Shown here: piece after piece, positions 3,298 to 13,997 of the stretch | Numbering within the stretch: the first letter of the stretch is position 1 | How the letters are laid out: each line of letters opens with the position of its first letter | From: a virus | Lineage: Duplodnaviria > Caudoviricetes | Length of the DNA: 39,708 nt | Virus record (IMG/VR): IMGVR_UViG_3300037692_000626 | Location: 1-39,708 of that record | Strand: one strand, 5' to 3' | The notes under the pieces: generated by a model | What the model saw: only the letters and a program-made list of their open reading frames with translations | The model's database searches: none | Told to the model about the DNA's origin: nothing | Position numbers and translations under genes: made by a program

Positions 3298-3978
3298 TCA
3301 ATCCTCCTTCCTTGTTGTGGGTTCGAGCTTTATGTCGTCGAAGACCACCGGGATCCGCCGCTGGAACTCCTCGAGGAGGGGACAGGCGATCTCCCGCATC
3401 TGGGGGTGCGCCGCAGGCGCAGTGCGGAGCCTGAAGAAGTGCCGCCACTCCCGGAGGTTCATCGTGACGACGATCTCGGTCTTGAGGCTGTTTGGCAGAA
3501 CCGAGCGGGCTTCTTGAGGTGTGGCACCCATCATGAGCAGGACACGATAGCCCCACTCGCAGGTCTGCATCACCATGGCCCATACGAGGGCTTTGTTCAG
3601 CGGCAAGAGCGACGTTTCGTCTGGGCCGGGAAGGAGCCTGGTTGGTTCCAAGCCCGTGAAGAAAGACGGCTGGATTACCTGGACCTCTTTGCCGTAGTTG
3701 CAGTACCGGGTGCTCTCCTGGCTGTAGCTGGCGATCCGATGGCGGACGAGCTCATGGGTTACGCCGCGATCGCAGACGATGCGTACTGTGACTTTCTCGT
3801 GCTCGAGCACCGACTCGTGCCCGCGCTTGATGAGCATCGCCACGAAGGCCCTGGCCGACTCGGCGGTCATCTTGTCCTCCGACTTGTAGCAGGTCCGCCC
3901 CGCCCGCTCGATCCTTCGGAGGATCTCCTCCCCGTCAATTCGGTCCTCGATCCTGAAGTTTGGCGTAACGATCTTCAT
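3298..3978 (-). CDS. thyX: FAD-dependent thymidylate synthase ThyX
   Basis: AGRTCYKS, GHESVLEH, signature RHRIASYSQESTRY, ARSVLPN, NLREWRHFFRLR, AHPQMR. Start MKIV at 3978 (ATGA overlap). Confidence 0.96.
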   Translation of the reverse strand: MKIVTPNFRIEDRIDGEEILRRIERAGRTCYKSEDKMTAESARAFVAMLIKRGHESVLEHEKVTVRIVCDRGVTHELVRHRIASYSQESTRYCNYGKEVQVIQPSFFTGLEPTRLLPGPDETSLLPLNKALVWAMVMQTCEWGYRVLLMMGATPQEARSVLPNSLKTEIVVTMNLREWRHFFRLRTAPAAHPQMREIACPLLEEFQRRIPVVFDDIKLEPTTRKED

Positions 3979-4196
3979 GTCGTCACCCTCGCTTCCGGGA
4001 ACGGCCGCCCCTTGCGCTTTGGCGGGCGGGGGACCTCCGTCACGCGCATCAGATCGAGCATTTCCTTCCGTGAAATGAACAGGGGCGGAGCCTCCTTCGT
4101 CCCGTACGCGTACGTGAGCCGGATGGCGAGCCGGCCGGTGTACTCGACCCGTGCGGAGATCCCGCGCTCGGCGTCGGAGGCGATGATCTGTCTCAT
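3975..4196 (-). CDS. Hypothetical protein
   Basis: ATGA overlaps on both sides; SD GGAGG. Confidence 0.7.
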   Translation of the reverse strand: MRQIIASDAERGISARVEYTGRLAIRLTYAYGTKEAPPLFISRKEMLDLMRVTEVPRPPKRKGRPFPEARVTT

Positions 4197-5080
4197 GCCG
4201 TCGCCCTCCGCTCACGCAGCCAGTCGAGGGAGACGTAGGCCAGCTCGTGCAAGCAGTCGTCGACGTCCGGATCTTTCCCGGCGAGTAAAGCCTCGGTGAG
4301 TGCGCCGAGCGCGACGTGCAACTGGCCCATGGAGGACGCGTCCATCGGGTGTCTGCGCCCCCCCCCCCCATTATTTGGCGGGACCATGACGGTGGCCTGG
4401 GCGGGGCTGGGATTCCGTGGGATGGCCTGGGACTTCCTGGGCGCGGCCGGTTTTCGGTTGACACGCGGGGCTTTTTTCGACGGTACGGTTGCATCGTTCG
4501 ACGCGCTCGCTCGGGCGGGCTTCTTGCCGTCGATCTCTTCCAGGGGGTTGGAAAGGTCCGGAGTCGTGTAGACCATGCTGTCGCTGCGCTTGCCGGGCCA
4601 CACCTTGATCTTCCCTTCCGCCTCGAGGGCCTTGGCGATGGGTTCAACCTCATCTCTTTTGAGGCGGATCATGCCGGCCAGGGCGCCCCGTGTGATGGCC
4701 TTGTGCTCCTGGATCTTGCGCAGGACCAGGTCCTTCTTCGTCGCATCCATCCTGTTCTCCTCCTTTTTGTTGTGGTCATCCTTTTTGTTGTGGTCATCCT
4801 TTTCGTTGGGTCGCGCCTGGTGCTCCTTGATACCGTTCGTAGTCGTTTGTATGACATTGTTTAACTTGCGGCGCGCCTCCCCCTCTTTCCTCCCGAGCGA
4901 TCTCCATGCGGACAACCCCAGGCCCGCCGCCTTGGCCGGTTCGACGCAACCGACCTCCCGGGCTTTCTCCTCGTTCGTCCGGCCGGCCTTGCAGTTCATG
5001 CACCGCGCGGGGGGCCCGGTGCGCCGCACCGCGATGCAGTTCTTCACGTCGTTCTCGTGTGGGCAGTCGCGGGGCGTCAT
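4193..5080 (-). CDS. Hypothetical protein: Cys-rich N-terminus, central winged-helix-like domain; probable internal start at 4750; contains a G12 tract
   Basis: ATG 5080 overlaps the upstream stop (ATGA). Internal AAAGGAGGAG-ATG before MDATKKDLVLRKIQEHKAITRGALAGMIRLKRDEVEPIAKALEAEGKI (wHTH-like). Confidence 0.65.
   Translation of the reverse strand: MTPRDCPHENDVKNCIAVRRTGPPARCMNCKAGRTNEEKAREVGCVEPAKAAGLGLSAWRSLGRKEGEARRKLNNVIQTTTNGIKEHQARPNEKDDHNKKDDHNKKEENRMDATKKDLVLRKIQEHKAITRGALAGMIRLKRDEVEPIAKALEAEGKIKVWPGKRSDSMVYTTPDLSNPLEEIDGKKPARASASNDATVPSKKAPRVNRKPAAPRKSQAIPRNPSPAQATVMVPPNNGGGGRRHPMDASSMGQLHVALGALTEALLAGKDPDVDDCLHELAYVSLDWLRERRATA
4761..4808. repeat. 18-bp tandem repeat TCCTTTTTGTTGTGGTCA x~2.7 (encodes KDDHNK repeats)
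   Basis: Copies at 4761-4778, 4779-4796 and a partial copy at 4797-4808. Confidence 0.9.
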
Positions 5081-8348: not shown

Positions 8349-10406
8349 TCAGGACTGCCCTTCCGCCGCCAGCTTGTCCGACTCGAACATGTAGAGGGTC
8401 TTCTTGAGCCTGGCCGTCGGCACGATCGCGGAGATGTCCATCGTCCCCGCCCGCTCCATCTCGCGGCGTTGGGCGATCACCTCGTCCATGGCCGTCCTGG
8501 CCGGCTCGATCACGGCGCTCTGCTGCGTCCCGGGGACGTACCCGCGCCGCTCGTTCACCGCCTGGATCCCCATGGCGAAATCCTCCATGGCGACCTGGGG
8601 CGCGGGCGCTGAATCCGGATCCGGGAGGAAGGAGCGGACCATCTTCTCGCGGTGGCGGTTGCGGGCCTGCGCCTCCTTCAAGGCGGCCTTGGCCTGGGGC
8701 GTCCTGGCCAGGGCGTCGACCTGCTCGGCGATCACGGCCTGGCCGAGGTACTCGTCGTCCTCCGCCCGGAAGGCCCACGCGTCCTCGTAGCTTTCCGGAT
8801 CGCGGCGCAGGTAGACCTTGGACCCCTTCATCGCGGTCATCCACTCGCCCCAGTAGGTCTTGCCGATCTCGGAGTCCCGCACGCCATTGCGTCCGATGGT
8901 GATGGGGCGGGACGTTCTCATGCAGAAGAGCTTCAAGGCCTCGGCGCCCACCATCCGCGGGACCGGGGCTTCCTTCTCCCACGCCTCGTCGGCGCACATG
9001 CCGCAGAGAACTTTTCCGTCGGAGGGCATCCGGTTGAGGATCCGCTCCACGGCGAAGGAAAGGAGGGAGACGAACTGGTCCCACTCGAGGACCTTCCCGG
9101 TGCGGATCTCCTCGGCGAGCTTCTCCGGCTTCTCCACCGTGTTGCCGCCCCGGTAGCCGGGCAGCCCCTTGGAGACCCATTCCTTGAACTTGAGGAAGGT
9201 CCGCTCGATCGTCTTGGACTGCGCGCGATACGGGAGCGAGAAGTGCGGCTGGATGCCGAGCTGGGCGACCATGGCGGTGGATTTGCCCTGATCCGCAGCG
9301 ATCCGGTGGAGATAGGTGCGTCCGCCCGCGAAGTCCTTGGCCCGGTAATCCTTGCCGTTGTCGATGTAGAGGTCGGTGGGAAGGCCGAACCGCCGGGCCG
9401 CCCGGTAGAAGGACTGAAAGATGTGGTCGGAGTTGGGCGCTTCCGGGTGGGGGAAAAGGTTTAAGATCTTCGTCGTCTTAAAGTCGATCCAGCCGGTCAG
9501 CCAGGGGAAGACGACCTTGCCGCCCGGCAGCCGGACGGCGATGTCGGCCTGGTGGTGATCTCCTACCCAGCATCCGTTCGCCGGAAGGGCGCTTAAGTCC
9601 CTCTCTATATAGGAAGCGTACTTTCGGTTCCAGGCGCCCCGGCCGTGCCGCGCCAGGTAGATCGTCTCCTCGGGGATCTCGCTCTCCAGCCGGCGGAGGA
9701 AGGTGATCGCCGACGGGAAGGTGTCCATGGCGAAGGAGGGATCGGTGCGGCGGGCAAACCCCGCGGTCTTCAACCAGCAGGATTTTACGGAGGGGCCGCC
9801 CTCGATGAGGAAGGCCGTCTTGAAATAGGCGAACCATTCGTCGTGGATTGCGGGGGCGGTTCCCTTGCGGTTCGCCAGACGTCCCCACTTGCCCGCCAGG
9901 CCGATGACGCCCTTCTCCCGGTAGATCTTCCGGGCGGCGACGACGCGCTGGTAGGAGGTGCGGTTGCCTGGATTCTTCGCGTTCCACTCGCCGACGAAGG
10001 CGCGCAGCGCCACGCCCTTCATGCCGGCTCCGGCGGAAATCAAGGAGAGGTATTTGTCAACCGTCCTCCTCGCCCAGGCGGGCAAGGAGGCGTAGACATT
10101 CGATTCGATGTCGATGGCGGCCAGGTCCTCGGCCGGGGTCGGAGGAGCGCCCTCCCGGCGCGCCACCTCTCCGAAGTAGGCCGCGCGGGCTCCCGCGGGG
10201 ATGGCGGGGTCGGTGATGTGGACGAGACATTTCCGCCCGCTGTTGCCGCCACCCTTCGAGGAATCGATGGAATGGATCCGGGTGAACTTCCCCCGGAGCT
10301 TCTTTTTCTTGATGGACGTAAAGTTCCAGCCGGTAAGAGCACTCAAGGTTTGAAAATCAACGTAATCGCGTTCGCAGAGTTGCGCGTCAGGCTGATTTAC
10401 GGGCAC
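8349..10406 (-). CDS. MuA-like DDE transposase
   Basis: WVGDHH (D), LYIDNGKDY (D), AQSKTIERTF (E), followed by a Mu-transposase C-terminal-like region (VYLRRDP...AWAF); adjacent to the MuB-like gene. Confidence 0.95.
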   Translation of the reverse strand: MPVNQPDAQLCERDYVDFQTLSALTGWNFTSIKKKKLRGKFTRIHSIDSSKGGGNSGRKCLVHITDPAIPAGARAAYFGEVARREGAPPTPAEDLAAIDIESNVYASLPAWARRTVDKYLSLISAGAGMKGVALRAFVGEWNAKNPGNRTSYQRVVAARKIYREKGVIGLAGKWGRLANRKGTAPAIHDEWFAYFKTAFLIEGGPSVKSCWLKTAGFARRTDPSFAMDTFPSAITFLRRLESEIPEETIYLARHGRGAWNRKYASYIERDLSALPANGCWVGDHHQADIAVRLPGGKVVFPWLTGWIDFKTTKILNLFPHPEAPNSDHIFQSFYRAARRFGLPTDLYIDNGKDYRAKDFAGGRTYLHRIAADQGKSTAMVAQLGIQPHFSLPYRAQSKTIERTFLKFKEWVSKGLPGYRGGNTVEKPEKLAEEIRTGKVLEWDQFVSLLSFAVERILNRMPSDGKVLCGMCADEAWEKEAPVPRMVGAEALKLFCMRTSRPITIGRNGVRDSEIGKTYWGEWMTAMKGSKVYLRRDPESYEDAWAFRAEDDEYLGQAVIAEQVDALARTPQAKAALKEAQARNRHREKMVRSFLPDPDSAPAPQVAMEDFAMGIQAVNERRGYVPGTQQSAVIEPARTAMDEVIAQRREMERAGTMDISAIVPTARLKKTLYMFESDKLAAEGQS

Positions 10407-10629
10407 GCGTCCCCTCCGACGGATCGGTTTTCTTGAGAAGCCCTTCCTTCTCTAGGTCCCAGAGGATTGCTTTCGCGGTGGGGCCGGGGTTGCCGAAAAT
10501 CCCGTAGAGAATCTTGAAGACGGAGTCCGGCTTGTAGCCGTGCATCCGGGCCCAACCGGAAACGGTCATGCCGCGCTTCCGGAGAATCTTGATCACGTCC
10601 CTGTGTCCCGGTTTCTTCACTGCTTGCAT
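10387..10629 (-). CDS. Ner/Cro-like DNA-binding protein (BcepMu gp16-like)
   Basis: LRKRGMTVSGWARMHGYKPDSVFKILYG HTH; first gene after the early promoter, divergent from the repressor; SD AAGGGGA. Confidence 0.8.
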   Translation of the reverse strand: MQAVKKPGHRDVIKILRKRGMTVSGWARMHGYKPDSVFKILYGIFGNPGPTAKAILWDLEKEGLLKKTDPSEGTRARKSA

Positions 10630-10676
10630 TCCCCTTCGATATGCGTTAAACCTTTTCCCAAACATCTATGAATGGC

Positions 10677-10705
10677 ATAGTATGCGCCTGCGAATAATAT
10701 GTCAA
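10677..10705 (-). promoter_or_regulatory. Early lytic promoter (Pe)
   Basis: Minus strand TTGACA (10705-10700), 17-bp spacer, TACTAT (10682-10677). Confidence 0.85.
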
Positions 10706-10726
10706 GGGAAAATGCGTTAGCGAATA
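10682..10726. promoter_or_regulatory. Two putative repressor operators ATGCG-N3-GCGAATA (10682-10696, 10712-10726)
   Basis: Near-palindromic direct repeats 30 bp apart; the first lies in the Pe spacer. Confidence 0.65.
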
Positions 10727-11373
10727 TGGAGACATACAAAAATCCCTCTTTCGGCGATCGAATTCGTAAATTAAGGGGAGACCTTAACCAGTCTCAATAT
10801 GCCGTAAAGATTGGTGTTACACAGCCAACCGTGACAAAATATGAACGTGGCATGGTTCCGAACGCTGACATTCTCCTGCGAATTGGACGATTGCACAATA
10901 AATCGGTGAAATGGCTGCTCGAAGGCGATGTGTCTTTGGAACGTACGGCAGACATTTCCAGTTACACCCTGATCCCCCTCTACAACGTGGAGGCCTCCGC
11001 CGGTGGAGGAGAGATTCCAATCGACGAGAGCGTCCGGGAATATATCCCCTTGAAGATCGCCTGGCTCAAGGCGGAGCTGCGCGCCGGCGTCTCGGGAGTG
11101 CTCGCGGTCCCGGTCAGCGGCGATTCCATGAAACCAACGATGGCCGACGGGGATCTCGTCCTCATCGAAAAGACCTCCGAGATCCGGGACGACGCCATCT
11201 ACGTTTTCCGGCGGGGCGATCACGTCTACGTCAAGCGGCTCCAAGCCTTGCCCGGCGGGCGTTTCGAGGTGATCAGCGACAACGTCATGTACAAGCCCTA
11301 CACGGTCGATCCCGAGCAGTTCCCGGAATACTCCGTCATCGGCCGCGTGATATGGCACGGACGGAATCTTTAA
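10699..11373 (+). CDS. CI/LexA-like repressor (XRE HTH plus S24 peptidase); start may be 10726
   Basis: FGDRIRKLRGDLNQSQYAVKIGVTQPTVTKYERG HTH; ASAGGG cleavage region; VSGDSMKPT (Ser) and YVKRLQ (Lys). Confidence 0.95.
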   Translation: MSRENALANMETYKNPSFGDRIRKLRGDLNQSQYAVKIGVTQPTVTKYERGMVPNADILLRIGRLHNKSVKWLLEGDVSLERTADISSYTLIPLYNVEASAGGGEIPIDESVREYIPLKIAWLKAELRAGVSGVLAVPVSGDSMKPTMADGDLVLIEKTSEIRDDAIYVFRRGDHVYVKRLQALPGGRFEVISDNVMYKPYTVDPEQFPEYSVIGRVIWHGRNL

Positions 11374-11388
11374 CGATGGAGGTGACGC

Positions 11389-12099
11389 ATGAACAGAAAG
11401 GCAACGTTCCCGATATTCTTGGTCTGTGTTTTTGTGCTGCTCGCCGGTTGCGGCGCCGCGCCTCAAATCGTGCGGCCCGAATTCAAGAGCTCCGACACCT
11501 TCGTTGTGGGCATGGAACAGAAAAAAAGCATCGGTGAGCCGATGGTCGATAAGGTGGCCTTGCATTACTATCCGGGGTTTGTCGCCAAGAACGACTACCT
11601 TCCACCAGGCATGCTCGGCACCCAATTCCCTCTTGTCAAAAGCGGTTCGGAATGGAGCTGCCAGGGCAGGTACGAGGGCGGGAACTATAGATGCAAAGCC
11701 GTGCTCGGATGGGGCCGTGCAAGGGCGCTCGGAGTCGAACAGAATTTTGAATACGACCTCGTCATCACGCCGAGCGGAAATCCATCCGGGGTTGTCGCAG
11801 GGGATATTTATGGAATCAATTCTTTTCCCGATCCTCAGCCCGTCGTCTTCAGGCCTTCCGAGATCGCCCAGCCGGGTTCCTTCCGTCAGGAGCTCCTCTA
11901 CAACGGCAAGAGCAAGGACACGATCCGGATCTCCTACCGTGAATTCAAGGACACTCTTGCTCGCCCGGCTTTTTCCCAAGACCTGTCGTACGACCTGAGC
12001 GAGTCCAGGGAGATCGGCTTCCGCGGGATGATCATCGAAGTGGTCGAAGCCACGAACTCCTACATTCGCTTCCTCGTCCGGAAGCCGATGAGCCAGTGA
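11389..12099 (+). CDS. Lipoprotein moron, probably co-transcribed with the repressor
   Basis: Signal peptide II with lipobox LAGC; SD GGAGG; 15 bp downstream of the repressor. Confidence 0.85.
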   Translation: MNRKATFPIFLVCVFVLLAGCGAAPQIVRPEFKSSDTFVVGMEQKKSIGEPMVDKVALHYYPGFVAKNDYLPPGMLGTQFPLVKSGSEWSCQGRYEGGNYRCKAVLGWGRARALGVEQNFEYDLVITPSGNPSGVVAGDIYGINSFPDPQPVVFRPSEIAQPGSFRQELLYNGKSKDTIRISYREFKDTLARPAFSQDLSYDLSESREIGFRGMIIEVVEATNSYIRFLVRKPMSQ

Positions 12100-12128: not shown

Positions 12129-12650
12129 TCATTTAGACACTACCTCCAGGTTCCGCTTCATCACCGCGACGATCTCCCGACGGTCGTCCTCCATCAGGGC
12201 GAGGAACGGTCTGGCGGGGATCTGCGACCCCGGGGGATTGACGCTTTTCACCGGATGTCTTCCGCCCGCCCAGGCGAGGGCTTTCTTTCCCTTGGGCCGG
12301 ATCACATGAGGGCGGGTCCGTCCGCCGAACTGGTGGATCGCCGCATAGGGCTTGTTGGTCCCGACGGTCGCGGAGGTCGCATCGTAGGATGCGGAGATCG
12401 AGGCGGCCAGGCCGCCGGCGCTTCGGACCAGGATCTGCCCCGGCCAGGTTCCCTTCCGGAGACGCTCCGCGATCGTGCCGGGGGCAAGCGGCGTCCACTT
12501 CGGCCGTCCGCCCTGCTCGAAATTCTCCTCCACGGCGTCCAGCATGATCTGGGAGATCGCCCGCATGGCCGGTTTCAGGTCGGACGCCTTCGCGGCGAGT
12601 TTCTTCAGCATCGACTGGACCTGGCGGTCGTCGACCTTGATCTCGATCAC
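12129..12650 (-). CDS. Mu gpG-like virion morphogenesis (tail completion/neck) protein
   Basis: ENFEQGGRPKWTPL, GGLAASI, VGTNKPYAAIHQFGG, IPARPFL. Start GTG 12650 (MIEIKVDD). Confidence 0.92.
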   Translation of the reverse strand: MIEIKVDDRQVQSMLKKLAAKASDLKPAMRAISQIMLDAVEENFEQGGRPKWTPLAPGTIAERLRKGTWPGQILVRSAGGLAASISASYDATSATVGTNKPYAAIHQFGGRTRPHVIRPKGKKALAWAGGRHPVKSVNPPGSQIPARPFLALMEDDRREIVAVMKRNLEVVSK

Positions 12651-12687
12651 GCTTGATTCCTCTCCCGATCGGGAACACAATGGAAAT

Positions 12688-12784
12688 AGGCCCTGGCGAC
12701 GCGGTGAATCTCCCGGCCGTGCTTCCGTGGCGAAAGCCACGTCAGAGAGCTTTCGGAGGGGTGCGGGAGTCCTCCCCAGGGCCT
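12688..12784 (-). ncRNA. Structured four-way-junction RNA element immediately downstream of the MuF stop codon
   Basis: 9-bp closing stem AGGCCCUGG/CCAGGGCCU, three internal arms, CUCCC/GGGAG loop complementarity; a G-U pair in arm 3 favours the minus strand. Confidence 0.6.
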
Positions 12785-12785
12785 G

Positions 12786-13997
12786 TTACAACTCATCCTT
12801 GATGACCTTTCCCTTCCTCCGGATCGTCGTGATGTCGGATTCCCGCGCCGGCCGGAACGACGTCAGGTAATTCCGCGCGCCGTCCCCCGTGGTCTTGATC
12901 GCCCCGAAGAAGTACTTCTCGTCCACCCGCAGGAACACGAAGGTCTGATCCCCGTCCTGGACGACGAGCTGCGCCTGCTCGAGCAGGACGGGAAGCCGCT
13001 GGTAGTCGGCAAGAGCGAACTCCGGATGAGCGGTCATGTTCTTGGAGAGCGTCTGGTCGGAGAACAGCACGACCCGGGATTTCGATCCGATGGCCTTCAT
13101 GTACGGATCGTCCAGGACCGCGACGGGGAACGTCCCCCCGATCTCGCCCTTGAAAAACCGCGTGAAGTCCGGGCCCGTCACAGCTCCCTCGAGATACTGC
13201 TTCGCCACGTCGTAGTCGTACTTCTCCAGGTCCGGCTGCCAGGCGGCTTTCCCCTGGTTGAAATTGAACCCCGGATCCGGCGCCGTAGAGGCGTCCGTCT
13301 TGGGATTGGTGTAGACCGTGACGGTCTTCATCTCCCCGGTGGCCTTGCTGACCTGCACGTCCTCGTTTATTAAGTTTCCCTCGGAGGACTGCACGGTAAG
13401 CCCCTTCGCATCGAGGCGATCTTGGGAGAGCGCCCGCACGCGGCAGCGGCAGTTGAACGCCAGGGGCGGGTAATGCGTATTCCAGAAGGGGTCGTCGGCC
13501 GTGAAGACCAGGCCGTTCAAGGCGGCGTGCGTGGGCCGGGTCCTTGCGTCCATCACCGCCACGTACATCCAGTACGGCCGCTCCTCCCGGTTCTCCCACA
13601 TGTCGTTCCAGCGCCCGCCCATGTAGGCGCTCTGCAGATTCGTCCGGTAGATCGTCTTTAAGCGCCGGGGGGATCCAAGCTGCACTTCCTTCGCGCCGCC
13701 TTCTCCGTCACCCACCAGCTTTTTCCCCCACCAGCCCTTCGCTTGCAACTTCGGGGTGAGCTCTTCGATGAACTGCCGCTCCGTGATTCCATCGGCGATC
13801 GCCTTCCGTACCCCATCTTTCAGGTCCTGTAGCACGTCCATCCGCATCGCCTTTGCGACGGTGAACGCTTTGGCGTGGGCCTGTTCCCAGGTGTCCTTCC
13901 AGTCCCAGGAGAAGCGGTGTCCCTTGGAGGCGAAGTACTCCACCGCCTTCTCCGGCGCAAGGCCGATGGCGTAGGACAGGTCAGGTTTTTGCGGCAT
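12786..13997 (-). CDS. MuF (gpF/SPP1 gp7) head morphogenesis protein with C-terminal BECR/PBECR2-like nuclease-fold extension
   Basis: HAKAFTVAK, RRLKTIYRTN, DARTRPTH, PPLAFNCRCRV, PDPGF core. Roughly 130-aa extension FPVAVL...HPEF...DYQRLP...GAIKTT...NYLTSFR. Confidence 0.9.
   Translation of the reverse strand: MPQKPDLSYAIGLAPEKAVEYFASKGHRFSWDWKDTWEQAHAKAFTVAKAMRMDVLQDLKDGVRKAIADGITERQFIEELTPKLQAKGWWGKKLVGDGEGGAKEVQLGSPRRLKTIYRTNLQSAYMGGRWNDMWENREERPYWMYVAVMDARTRPTHAALNGLVFTADDPFWNTHYPPLAFNCRCRVRALSQDRLDAKGLTVQSSEGNLINEDVQVSKATGEMKTVTVYTNPKTDASTAPDPGFNFNQGKAAWQPDLEKYDYDVAKQYLEGAVTGPDFTRFFKGEIGGTFPVAVLDDPYMKAIGSKSRVVLFSDQTLSKNMTAHPEFALADYQRLPVLLEQAQLVVQDGDQTFVFLRVDEKYFFGAIKTTGDGARNYLTSFRPARESDITTIRRKGKVIKDEL

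Follow-up and report, generated by a model that had tools for sequence, protein, structure and literature searches.

A conserved tRNA-shaped RNA behind MuF-fused PBECR-type domains of Mu-like phages is a candidate antitoxin of a predicted virion-delivered nuclease

INTRODUCTION

MuF polymorphic toxins of temperate phages consist of a MuF N-terminus plus a C-terminal domain that varies, with a protective partner (a small immunity ORF) encoded directly downstream and absent from short MuFs (PMC5576092). In the parts of it drawn on here, the same study (Jamet 2017) leaves the proteobacterial extensions (Ct_MAD and others) unexplained and mentions no RNA. MuF can also be fused to PBECR domains, which are predicted to be packaged RNases (PMC5512222; bioRxiv 10.64898/2026.08.28.747851). 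PBECRs have a His and Ser/Thr site and belong to the same fold class as the BECR enzymes (PMC5512222), and the characterized colicin-like BECR enzymes mostly cut tRNA (bioRxiv 10.64898/2026.08.28.747851). The domain of phage Mu has been described as inactive (PMC5512222). The portions of these two sources considered describe neither a partner RNA nor an immunity factor for PBECR2 or PBECR3, and the preprint uses neither of the terms ncRNA and RNA antitoxin (0 occurrences).

The window studied here (the whole stretch analyzed, i.e. all 39,708 nt of IMG/VR record IMGVR_UViG_3300037692_000626; Duplodnaviria, Caudoviricetes) contains a MuF gene with a C-terminal extension, followed by a structured element in the place where an immunity gene might be expected. 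A preliminary description of the locus proposed that an RNase-fold domain is paired with a cognate structured RNA acting as an antitoxin, a tRNA-like decoy, an autoregulatory substrate or a packaged cofactor. What, then, is this element, from which strand is it made, and is it tied to the nuclease domain?

RESULTS

An extended MuF gene is followed by a gap devoid of a conserved ORF

The window phage is a Mu-like temperate phage, with repressor, transposase, transposition protein and Gam genes in the vicinity. The terminase, portal, MuF and gpG genes all lie on the minus strand (Table 1), MuF coming after portal and terminase. The Phage_Mu_F domain covers residues 58–187 of MuF, which also matches PHROG 220 (minor head/DNA pilot protein), and the ORF (13997–12786) does end in the extension of about 130–140 aa previously described. 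As in MuF polymorphic toxins, a temperate phage here encodes a MuF N-terminus joined to a C-terminal domain of the exchangeable kind.

The gpG start lies 135 bp beyond the MuF stop, in agreement with the preliminary description, which had seen no convincing ORF in between. We searched for a conserved ORF in this 135-nt gap across relatives and found none: the gap length differs among relatives and no reading frame is kept, and a hidden immunity ORF was rejected on this ground.

Two other features of the window may be mentioned. A repressor gene, a cro-like gene and a 236-aa lipoprotein-like ORF (10387–12099, plus strand) directly follow gpG, so that the head module is broken up by an immunity region, in contrast to the gene order of Mu. 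This Mu-like phage also carries a thymidylate-synthase-like gene (3298–4653, minus strand), with a DNA methyltransferase gene nearby (1558–2343).

Table 1. Coordinates of the features of the MuF–gpG region in the window
Feature	Position	Strand	Support
gpG (virion morphogenesis / neck protein)	12129..12650	-	Pfam PF05069, E 2e-31
Predicted sigma-70-type promoter, TTGATT (12653-12658), 17 nt, CACAAT (12676-12681)	12653..12681	+	sequence
tRNA-shaped small RNA gene (class A), 97 nt	12688..12784	+	covariance model, 62.8 bits
Acceptor-like closing stem, 5' strand (pairs with 12776-12784)	12688..12696	+	7/7 modelled pairs change on both sides
D-arm-like hairpin, 4-bp stem, CUCCC in loop	12701..12720	+	invariant positions in protein-found sequences
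Variable arm at anticodon-arm position, GAAA cap (GNRA loop)	12721..12750	+	pairs covary
T-arm-like hairpin adjoining closing stem	12755..12775	+	6/6 stem pairs covary
Closing stem, 3' strand; no CCA after	12776..12784	+	sequence
MuF (gpF-like minor head protein), 403 aa	12786..13997	-	Pfam PF04233, E 1e-26
PBECR3-like BECR-fold domain, MuF residues 274-403	12789..13178	-	homologue profiles, model, conservation

The MuF tail is a predicted BECR-type nuclease domain

The MuF tail of the window itself has no Pfam match at E<=1. It has 45 close homologues and 1218 cluster representatives at E<=0.001, and all 10 homologues tested match the PBECR3 profile (PF18812; E 9e-8 to 0.075), P0022 being the only one to reach the curated cut-off. 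The structure model of the domain (pLDDT 91) contains the BECR core (a helix and four to five strands), and its top fold matches are BECR ribonuclease toxins: BrnT comes first with Z 6.5 (rmsd 2.8 over 74 aligned), followed by a CdiA tRNase with Z 5.7 and by colicin D with Z 5.3 (rmsd 3.1 over 83 aligned). Note that these Z-scores are middling (<8), a range which, according to the search tool, may reflect a common arrangement. Foldseek returned nothing at E<=0.001 with this model, the sequence search against solved structures gave chance matches only, and profile comparisons of the domain with the tails of locus L234 and of Mu were weak (probability 54 and 12, respectively; L numbers designate related loci).

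The predicted active-site residues K319, H324, S380 and R382 are conserved, the positions of the first three being set by motif and secondary structure, without coordinate superposition. Among 82 class-A loci (i.e. loci with an RNA of the window type, a set that includes loci found through the RNA), the Lys is kept in 80, the His in 74 and the Ser (or Thr) in 82. This pattern fits the His and Ser/Thr site reported for PBECRs (PMC5512222) and for colicin-like BECRs (bioRxiv 10.64898/2026.08.28.747851), as far as the parts of these sources drawn on here go. The His is replaced although the RNA is kept in 8/82 class-A and 4/14 class-B loci, so that some of these partners may just bind RNA. We infer from the homologue profiles and the model that the domain is of the BECR type, with predicted RNase activity, and nearest to PBECR3. 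The preliminary description, which expected PBECR2/BECR, was right as to the fold, the closest family being PBECR3 rather than PBECR2.

The gap encodes a conserved, covarying RNA

The 97-nt element folds better than chance on either strand (z -2.72 for the minus strand, z -2.88 for the opposite one). When 62 sequences are aligned with plain MAFFT, the fraction of cells that pair is 79.1%, compared to 68.6% after shuffling, and two-sided changes occur at 21 of the 29 pairs. The corresponding figures for a model-fitted alignment of 97 sequences, which is biased towards structure, are 92.5%, 71.6% (37–57% for slid controls) and 22/29. Among the 14 column pairs with the highest corrected mutual information, 13 are modelled pairs and one lengthens the closing stem. 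The element is a real RNA element with a conserved and covarying fold, a point on which the preliminary proposal hinged.

On the plus strand, the RNA consists of the closing stem, a 4-nt linker, a 4-bp D-like arm, a variable arm, another 4-nt linker and a 5-bp T-like arm set directly against the closing stem, an arm spacing close to that of tRNA. The GGGAG of the T-like loop pairs with the CUCCC of the D-like loop (a 5-bp kiss), so that the RNA is pseudoknotted, as type III antitoxin RNAs are. This helix is 98% paired, with two-sided changes at 3/5 kissing pairs in few sequences, a test that is underpowered because GGGAG was fixed in the pattern used for the RNA-first search. The variable arm and its linker range from 18 to 46 nt across the 97 sequences, and CCA occurs near the 3' end in only 12 of them. 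ARAGORN found 0 tRNA genes in 26 related loci. A true tRNA has canonical D and T loops, a 7-nt anticodon loop and a CCA end; given the missing CCA, the variable arm length and the ARAGORN result, a true tRNA or tmRNA was rejected. Rfam 15 gave 0 matches in the window, as well as in 40 loci at the gathering threshold and in 20 loci at E<=0.01.

As regards the details of the fold, the closing stem (12784–12776/12696–12688), the first arm, the hairpin of the second arm and the CUCCC/GGGAG complementarity between loop 1 and arm 3 all lie where the preliminary description put them. Its register for the third arm is ruled out by comparison of related sequences: the conserved stem is ACGG/CCGY, which is nearly invariant, including in 26 sequences found via the protein alone, where only the Y changes. 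L048 and L049 do not keep the earlier CGG/CCG pairing, which would also hide part of the kissing strand. Nor does the suggested kink-turn hold. A kink-turn consists of conserved tandem G.A/A.G pairs beside a 3-nt bulge; here, the window, L020, L021, L037 and L045 have GA on the bulged strand, where GG, GT, AA or AT is found in L001, L022, L036, L043, L054, L075 and L143, and the motif is absent from the strand likely to be transcribed.

Two non-helical covariations were seen as well. In alignment A7, the second kiss position and the base before ACCG change together (8 sequences), possibly as an elbow base triple, and a second pair (columns 21 and 141) may just mark a subtype.

The RNA is most likely transcribed convergently with MuF from its own promoter

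When the helices are read on the MuF strand, A.C mismatches outnumber G.U pairs 47 to 8 in the first set and 125 to 34 in a larger count, the events being non-independent as the sequences are related. Since each A.C mismatch of the MuF strand corresponds to a G.U wobble of its complement, these counts point to an opposite-strand RNA. Hairpins capped by GNRA or UNCG tetraloops are found on the opposite strand in 52/119 RNAs and on the MuF strand in 5/119. Folding energy favors the opposite strand weakly (64/107).

A candidate promoter agrees with this orientation. In the window, it adjoins the gpG start and points from the gpG side into the RNA, its -10 box ending 6 nt before the RNA; it matches the consensus at 8/12 positions and scores below the threshold of a stock promoter scan, which reported none in the window. 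Its position and motif are conserved in relatives, some of which have TTGACA and TATAAT. For 117 of 121 RNAs (4 without an anchor were left out), the promoter score exceeds that of the shuffled flank in 107 cases, with means of 11.6 versus 9.3 for shuffled and 8.8 for same-strand sequences, and the -10 box ends 5–7 nt before the stem in 70. A terminator scan of positions 12500–13100 found none. Taken from the sequence, the RNA is most likely transcribed opposite to MuF, i.e. convergently from the plus strand, with a predicted promoter of its own. The preliminary description, in which a 97-nt element begins 1 nt past the MuF TAA on the same strand, is right about the position; the wobbles, the tetraloops and the promoter speak against its strand.

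These data bear on two cis-acting explanations. The first is a same-strand structure of the late mRNA (MuF 3' UTR or gpG leader), cut or bound in cis and tuning gpF/gpG. The minus strand folds well too, and the RNA remains beside gpG in L126 and L062, although in L126 this proximity is accounted for by the promoter, which often lies within the gpG start. By contrast, three independent strand signals favor the opposite strand, and no same-strand gpG comes next in 17/87 loci (15 with none within 320 nt, 2 with an inverted gpG), which led us to reject a gpG leader. We consider a same-strand structure of any kind highly improbable.

The second is a cis-antisense regulator akin to convergent type I antitoxins, which, in the lysogen, would silence MuF mRNA or any leaky transcription of the late genes through base pairing or polymerase collision, the tRNA shape merely stabilizing the RNA. 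In keeping with such a regulator, the promoter is convergent, the RNA is fully complementary to the late mRNA, and several loci (e.g. L055, L059, L073 and L092) have the RNA overlapping the MuF stop; moreover, the regulator would be needed solely if the tail were toxic, which also accounts for the co-occurrence described below. Pairing with its own locus, however, requires neither an invariant D-like arm nor a conserved kiss, and the RNA copies that lie behind non-cognate tails, are split off by an inserted gene (L126) or stand alone have no cis target. An antisense role of this kind seems quite unlikely to us.

The RNA tracks the nuclease domain

Loci were collected starting from the domain, from the RNA or from the MuF body. 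Of 53 domain-first loci fetched, 43 were distinct, and 40 of these have an RNA: 25 of class A (the window type), 10 of class B and 5 of class C, classes being assigned by motif and class B also being weakly matched by the class A model. Two of the others have no RNA and one reaches a contig end; L041 and L047 keep K/H/S with no evident RNA at the stop. Conversely, an RNA-first pattern scan gave 120 viral loci, and where the 5' half and at least 1.2 kb of upstream DNA were available, the domain ends at the RNA in 54/59. The filter removed 22 RNA-first loci, which by eye comprise 13 chance matches, 6 real RNAs with the domain and 3 real RNAs with little upstream DNA.

As a control, 80 loci were picked on the MuF body alone (5 truncated ones were left out). 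The next gene is at most 20 nt away in 39/40 short MuFs, and the 5 strong model matches in this set all come after the domain studied here. We also used a loose detector that looks for an opposite-strand promoter followed by a stem closing near the stop and that fires on about one third of shuffled sequences. This module was found after 1/37 short MuFs and after 27/29 BECR-tailed MuFs (8–12 in shuffles), indicating, as the preliminary proposal required, that the structure follows the domain and not extension-less MuF. It was also found at 31/32 PBECR2/3 genes from genomes (7–16 in shuffles; 38 loci fetched, 6 unscored), and the pairing therefore spans PBECR families, although the RNA sequences differ. 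In the 401 genomes sampled, PBECR2 is present in 30 and PBECR3 in 11.

Some tails look degenerate. Those of Mu, D3112, JBD25 and CF53b are long, seem degenerate by eye and are not followed by a gap; in B23, K, H and S are all missing and the RNA model finds no match. Two further types of protein came up in the survey: L306, a 931-aa ORF with PBECR3, has a promoter-plus-RNA module too, which may extend the pairing beyond ordinary MuF, and L185 and L192 have MuF tails with HExxH metallopeptidase-like motifs and have no gpG-sized RNA gap such as is usually seen.

RNA classes are probably exchanged with the domain and also occur as stacked and stand-alone copies

RNA subtype agrees best with the nuclease tree: over 84 rows, it changes 13 times on the nuclease tree and 26 times on the MuF-body tree; for the 58 rows with gpG, there are 12 changes on the nuclease tree and 17 and 18 on the MuF-body and gpG trees, respectively. 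These are FastTree trees built on few columns, and physical linkage can account for part of the signal. RNA class and domain clade do not correspond one to one, A2 requiring 8 changes and B requiring 4. L046, L116, L128 and L133 have stacked RNAs, which in two instances come behind another class.

The classes differ in architecture. Class B (L003, L033, L224, L248) has an extra hairpin, and the CUCCC/GGGAG pair is kept in several members. Class C (L009, L010, L116, L179, L180) has another consensus, with domains in which Phe replaces R382. A sister class (L226, L234, L212, L267–L273, L303, L305) has a literal tRNA T-loop and a D-loop-like GG. It lies just after the stop of MuF or PBECR genes, on the opposite strand, behind MuF_C/PBECR3-like tails; its viral matches come after MuF in 7/7 cases, and it has a sub-threshold match to tRNA-Sec on the opposite strand (17.4 bits, E 0.4). 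By sequence, this class provides the clearest tRNA mimics of the set. PBECR2-tailed genes (L178, L187, L188, L190, L196, L209, L218, L275–L298) have opposite-strand, stem-closed RNAs of their own that differ from these, carry the promoter motif and comprise several more RNA families. In L126, L191 and L193, a DNA-methyltransferase-like gene is inserted directly after MuF, which in L126 puts about 1 kb between MuF and its RNA.

The covariance model, run against whole genomes, had matches in 4/151 and 10/151 of them, always a single match per genome. Of these 14 matches, 3 are MuF-linked (2 being seeds), 10 stand alone and 1 comes after a frameshifted remnant. In the genomes with stand-alone copies, whose assemblies are possibly incomplete, a search that had a positive control did not find the domain; most of these copies have promoter-like motifs. 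Their neighbors include BrnT/BrnA, HepT, HicB, DUF3800, a CRISPR-like array and housekeeping genes. The array is in L313 (1–1602), where a lone class A RNA lies beside 22 direct repeats with a 66-nt spacing. Some stand-alone copies are decaying (L265, L266, L321) and others come after prophage genes (L062, L318). With related RNAs as nucleotide queries, named phages, plasmids and E. coli genomes yielded no match, which is why no isolate phage with class A could be identified, and a single-protein scan of viral contigs gave no match. Nor was a carrier of the RNA listed among sequencing runs, a result that has no bearing on expression.

Could the RNA be a small mobile or selfish element, or the relic of an integration site, which settles at gene ends and is not a partner of the domain? 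Copies that stand alone, flanked by housekeeping genes (L266, L319), tandem copies (L321) and the tRNA-like 3' halves of one class are in keeping with this explanation, which nevertheless fits poorly with the single model match in each of the 14 matched genomes, the near absence of the RNA after short MuFs and the fact that distinct PBECR families have it as different sequences. We find this explanation very unlikely. The stacked and stand-alone copies rather resemble, by analogy, orphan immunity genes.

DISCUSSION

The explanation that we favor, to which we give an even chance on the sequence evidence, is a virion-delivered toxin of the tRNase type, carried by the MuF tail, together with a tRNA-mimic RNA antitoxin. 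The tail, a colicin-D-like PBECR domain predicted to cut tRNA, would travel in the virion and be injected; the tRNA-shaped RNA would bind it as a substrate mimic and neutralize it. This supposes that the domain is an active toxin. Thanks to the predicted sigma-70-like, host-type promoter, the RNA would be present in lysogens, in which the late operon is silent, and again soon after DNA entry. The enzyme would read the conserved D-like arm and the loop–loop elbow, leaving the arm at the anticodon position free to vary. The conservation of tertiary features implies that a protein recognizes the RNA, rather than that the RNA acts by base pairing. As no terminator was seen, the 3' end might be trimmed by host or cognate nucleases. 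Toxin tip and RNA would be swapped together as a cassette, and displaced RNAs kept as orphan immunity. Absence without an intact nuclease and retention of orphans mirror the protein immunity genes of MuF toxins, as described in the parts of PMC5576092 considered here. Against this explanation stand L041 and L047, which have no evident RNA at the stop, and the loci that keep the RNA with the His replaced; moreover, a domain that merely binds the RNA would be just as expected to show the joint loss, seen in Mu, of the RNA and the catalytic residues.

This last point leads to a reversal of roles, in which the effector would be the RNA, with the PBECR domain as its handler: the domain would bind or trim the RNA and might load it into the virion, and the RNA would serve as a decoy against tRNA-targeting defense nucleases or tRNA surveillance of the host. 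Such an arrangement would explain why the RNA is kept where the His is replaced, is compatible with the joint loss in Mu, and is in line with the literal tRNA T-loop and weak tRNA-Sec match of the sister class; something must also form the 3' end in the absence of a terminator. An anti-defense decoy is, however, of little use to a host, which makes the stand-alone copies without the domain, some of them in toxin–antitoxin surroundings, difficult to account for. Furthermore, the many unrelated RNA classes found with different PBECR subfamilies fit cognate recognition better than a single host target, and the His and Ser are kept in most members. We therefore regard the handler role as rather unlikely.

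Of the four options initially proposed, antitoxin or tRNA-like decoy is the best supported. The pairing of an RNase-fold domain with a cognate structured RNA has held up insofar as the RNA is conserved, follows the domain and matches no Rfam family; the same-strand, autoregulatory-substrate or 3'-UTR option is undermined by the prediction that the RNA is a gene in its own right, counter-transcribed from a promoter of its own.

How does this arrangement compare with known systems? In type III toxin–antitoxin systems (ToxIN, CptIN, TenpIN), a structured RNA is proposed to neutralize an RNase by binding it, and the antitoxin consists of tandem repeats upstream of the toxin, in the same operon, with a terminator in between. 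The likeness lies in a structured, pseudoknotted RNA proposed (here predicted) to neutralize an RNase and in the prophage location. The layout is different: here, a single copy lies downstream and is convergent, with no terminator found in positions 12500–13100. The same prophage location and proposed mode of action apply to AbiF and its RNA RCd22, in the parts of that report covered (bioRxiv 10.1101/2025.04.15.648962). In contrast to both, the RNA described here has a four-way tRNA shape, its partner has a BECR fold rather than a ToxN or HEPN one, and the toxin is fused to a virion protein. The RNA would work like a type III antitoxin, with neither the type III layout nor the immunity ORF of MuF toxins, which is replaced by a counter-transcribed RNA.

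With respect to shape, tRNA mimics include the bacterial Y RNA YrlA and the phage C4 and P4 CI cloverleaf RNAs. The present RNA shares with tRNA and its mimics a four-helix cloverleaf, a contact between D-like and T-like loops and a T-like arm against the closing stem; unlike tRNA, it has no CCA and no conserved anticodon arm, and a 5-bp kiss replaces the elbow. The nearest precedent in pattern, judging from the sections of Weinberg 2017 (PMC5737381) considered, is provided by the DUF3800-linked, drum and skipping-rope motifs, RNAs of unknown function that are followed by terminators and in which many dissimilar RNAs, on either strand, accompany one protein domain. The protein family is another one here, and neither Rfam matches nor terminators were found. 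Among the papers listed in our literature searches, none describes, by title or abstract, an RNA paired with MuF or PBECR, and the RNA families and their pairing with the domain appear undescribed; the motif may, however, be among the unnamed candidates of PMC10690425, which covers 10,000 viral candidate RNAs.

We tentatively extend this reading, at somewhat less than an even chance for the whole, to PBECR virion nucleases in general. They would form a polymorphic toxin system with tRNA-mimic RNA immunity genes, in which each subfamily has its own counter-transcribed cloverleaf RNA, swapped along with the toxin tip; phages would carry stacked RNAs as orphan arrays, and bacterial chromosomes would have captured RNAs as an RNA-only immunity to the tRNases that phages inject. 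The pairing is common, given the frequency of PBECR2 and PBECR3 in the sampled genomes and the presence of the module at nearly every gene examined.

Whatever their function, these are unannotated structured RNA genes that coding-strand annotation would overlook. If the favored explanation is true, the RNA would be the first RNA immunity factor known to us for a polymorphic virion-delivered toxin, and would define a new class of RNA antitoxins, one whose members imitate tRNA. The role of the MuF C-terminal extensions in Mu-like phages, and the means by which PBECR carriers without an immunity ORF escape self-poisoning, thereby become testable.
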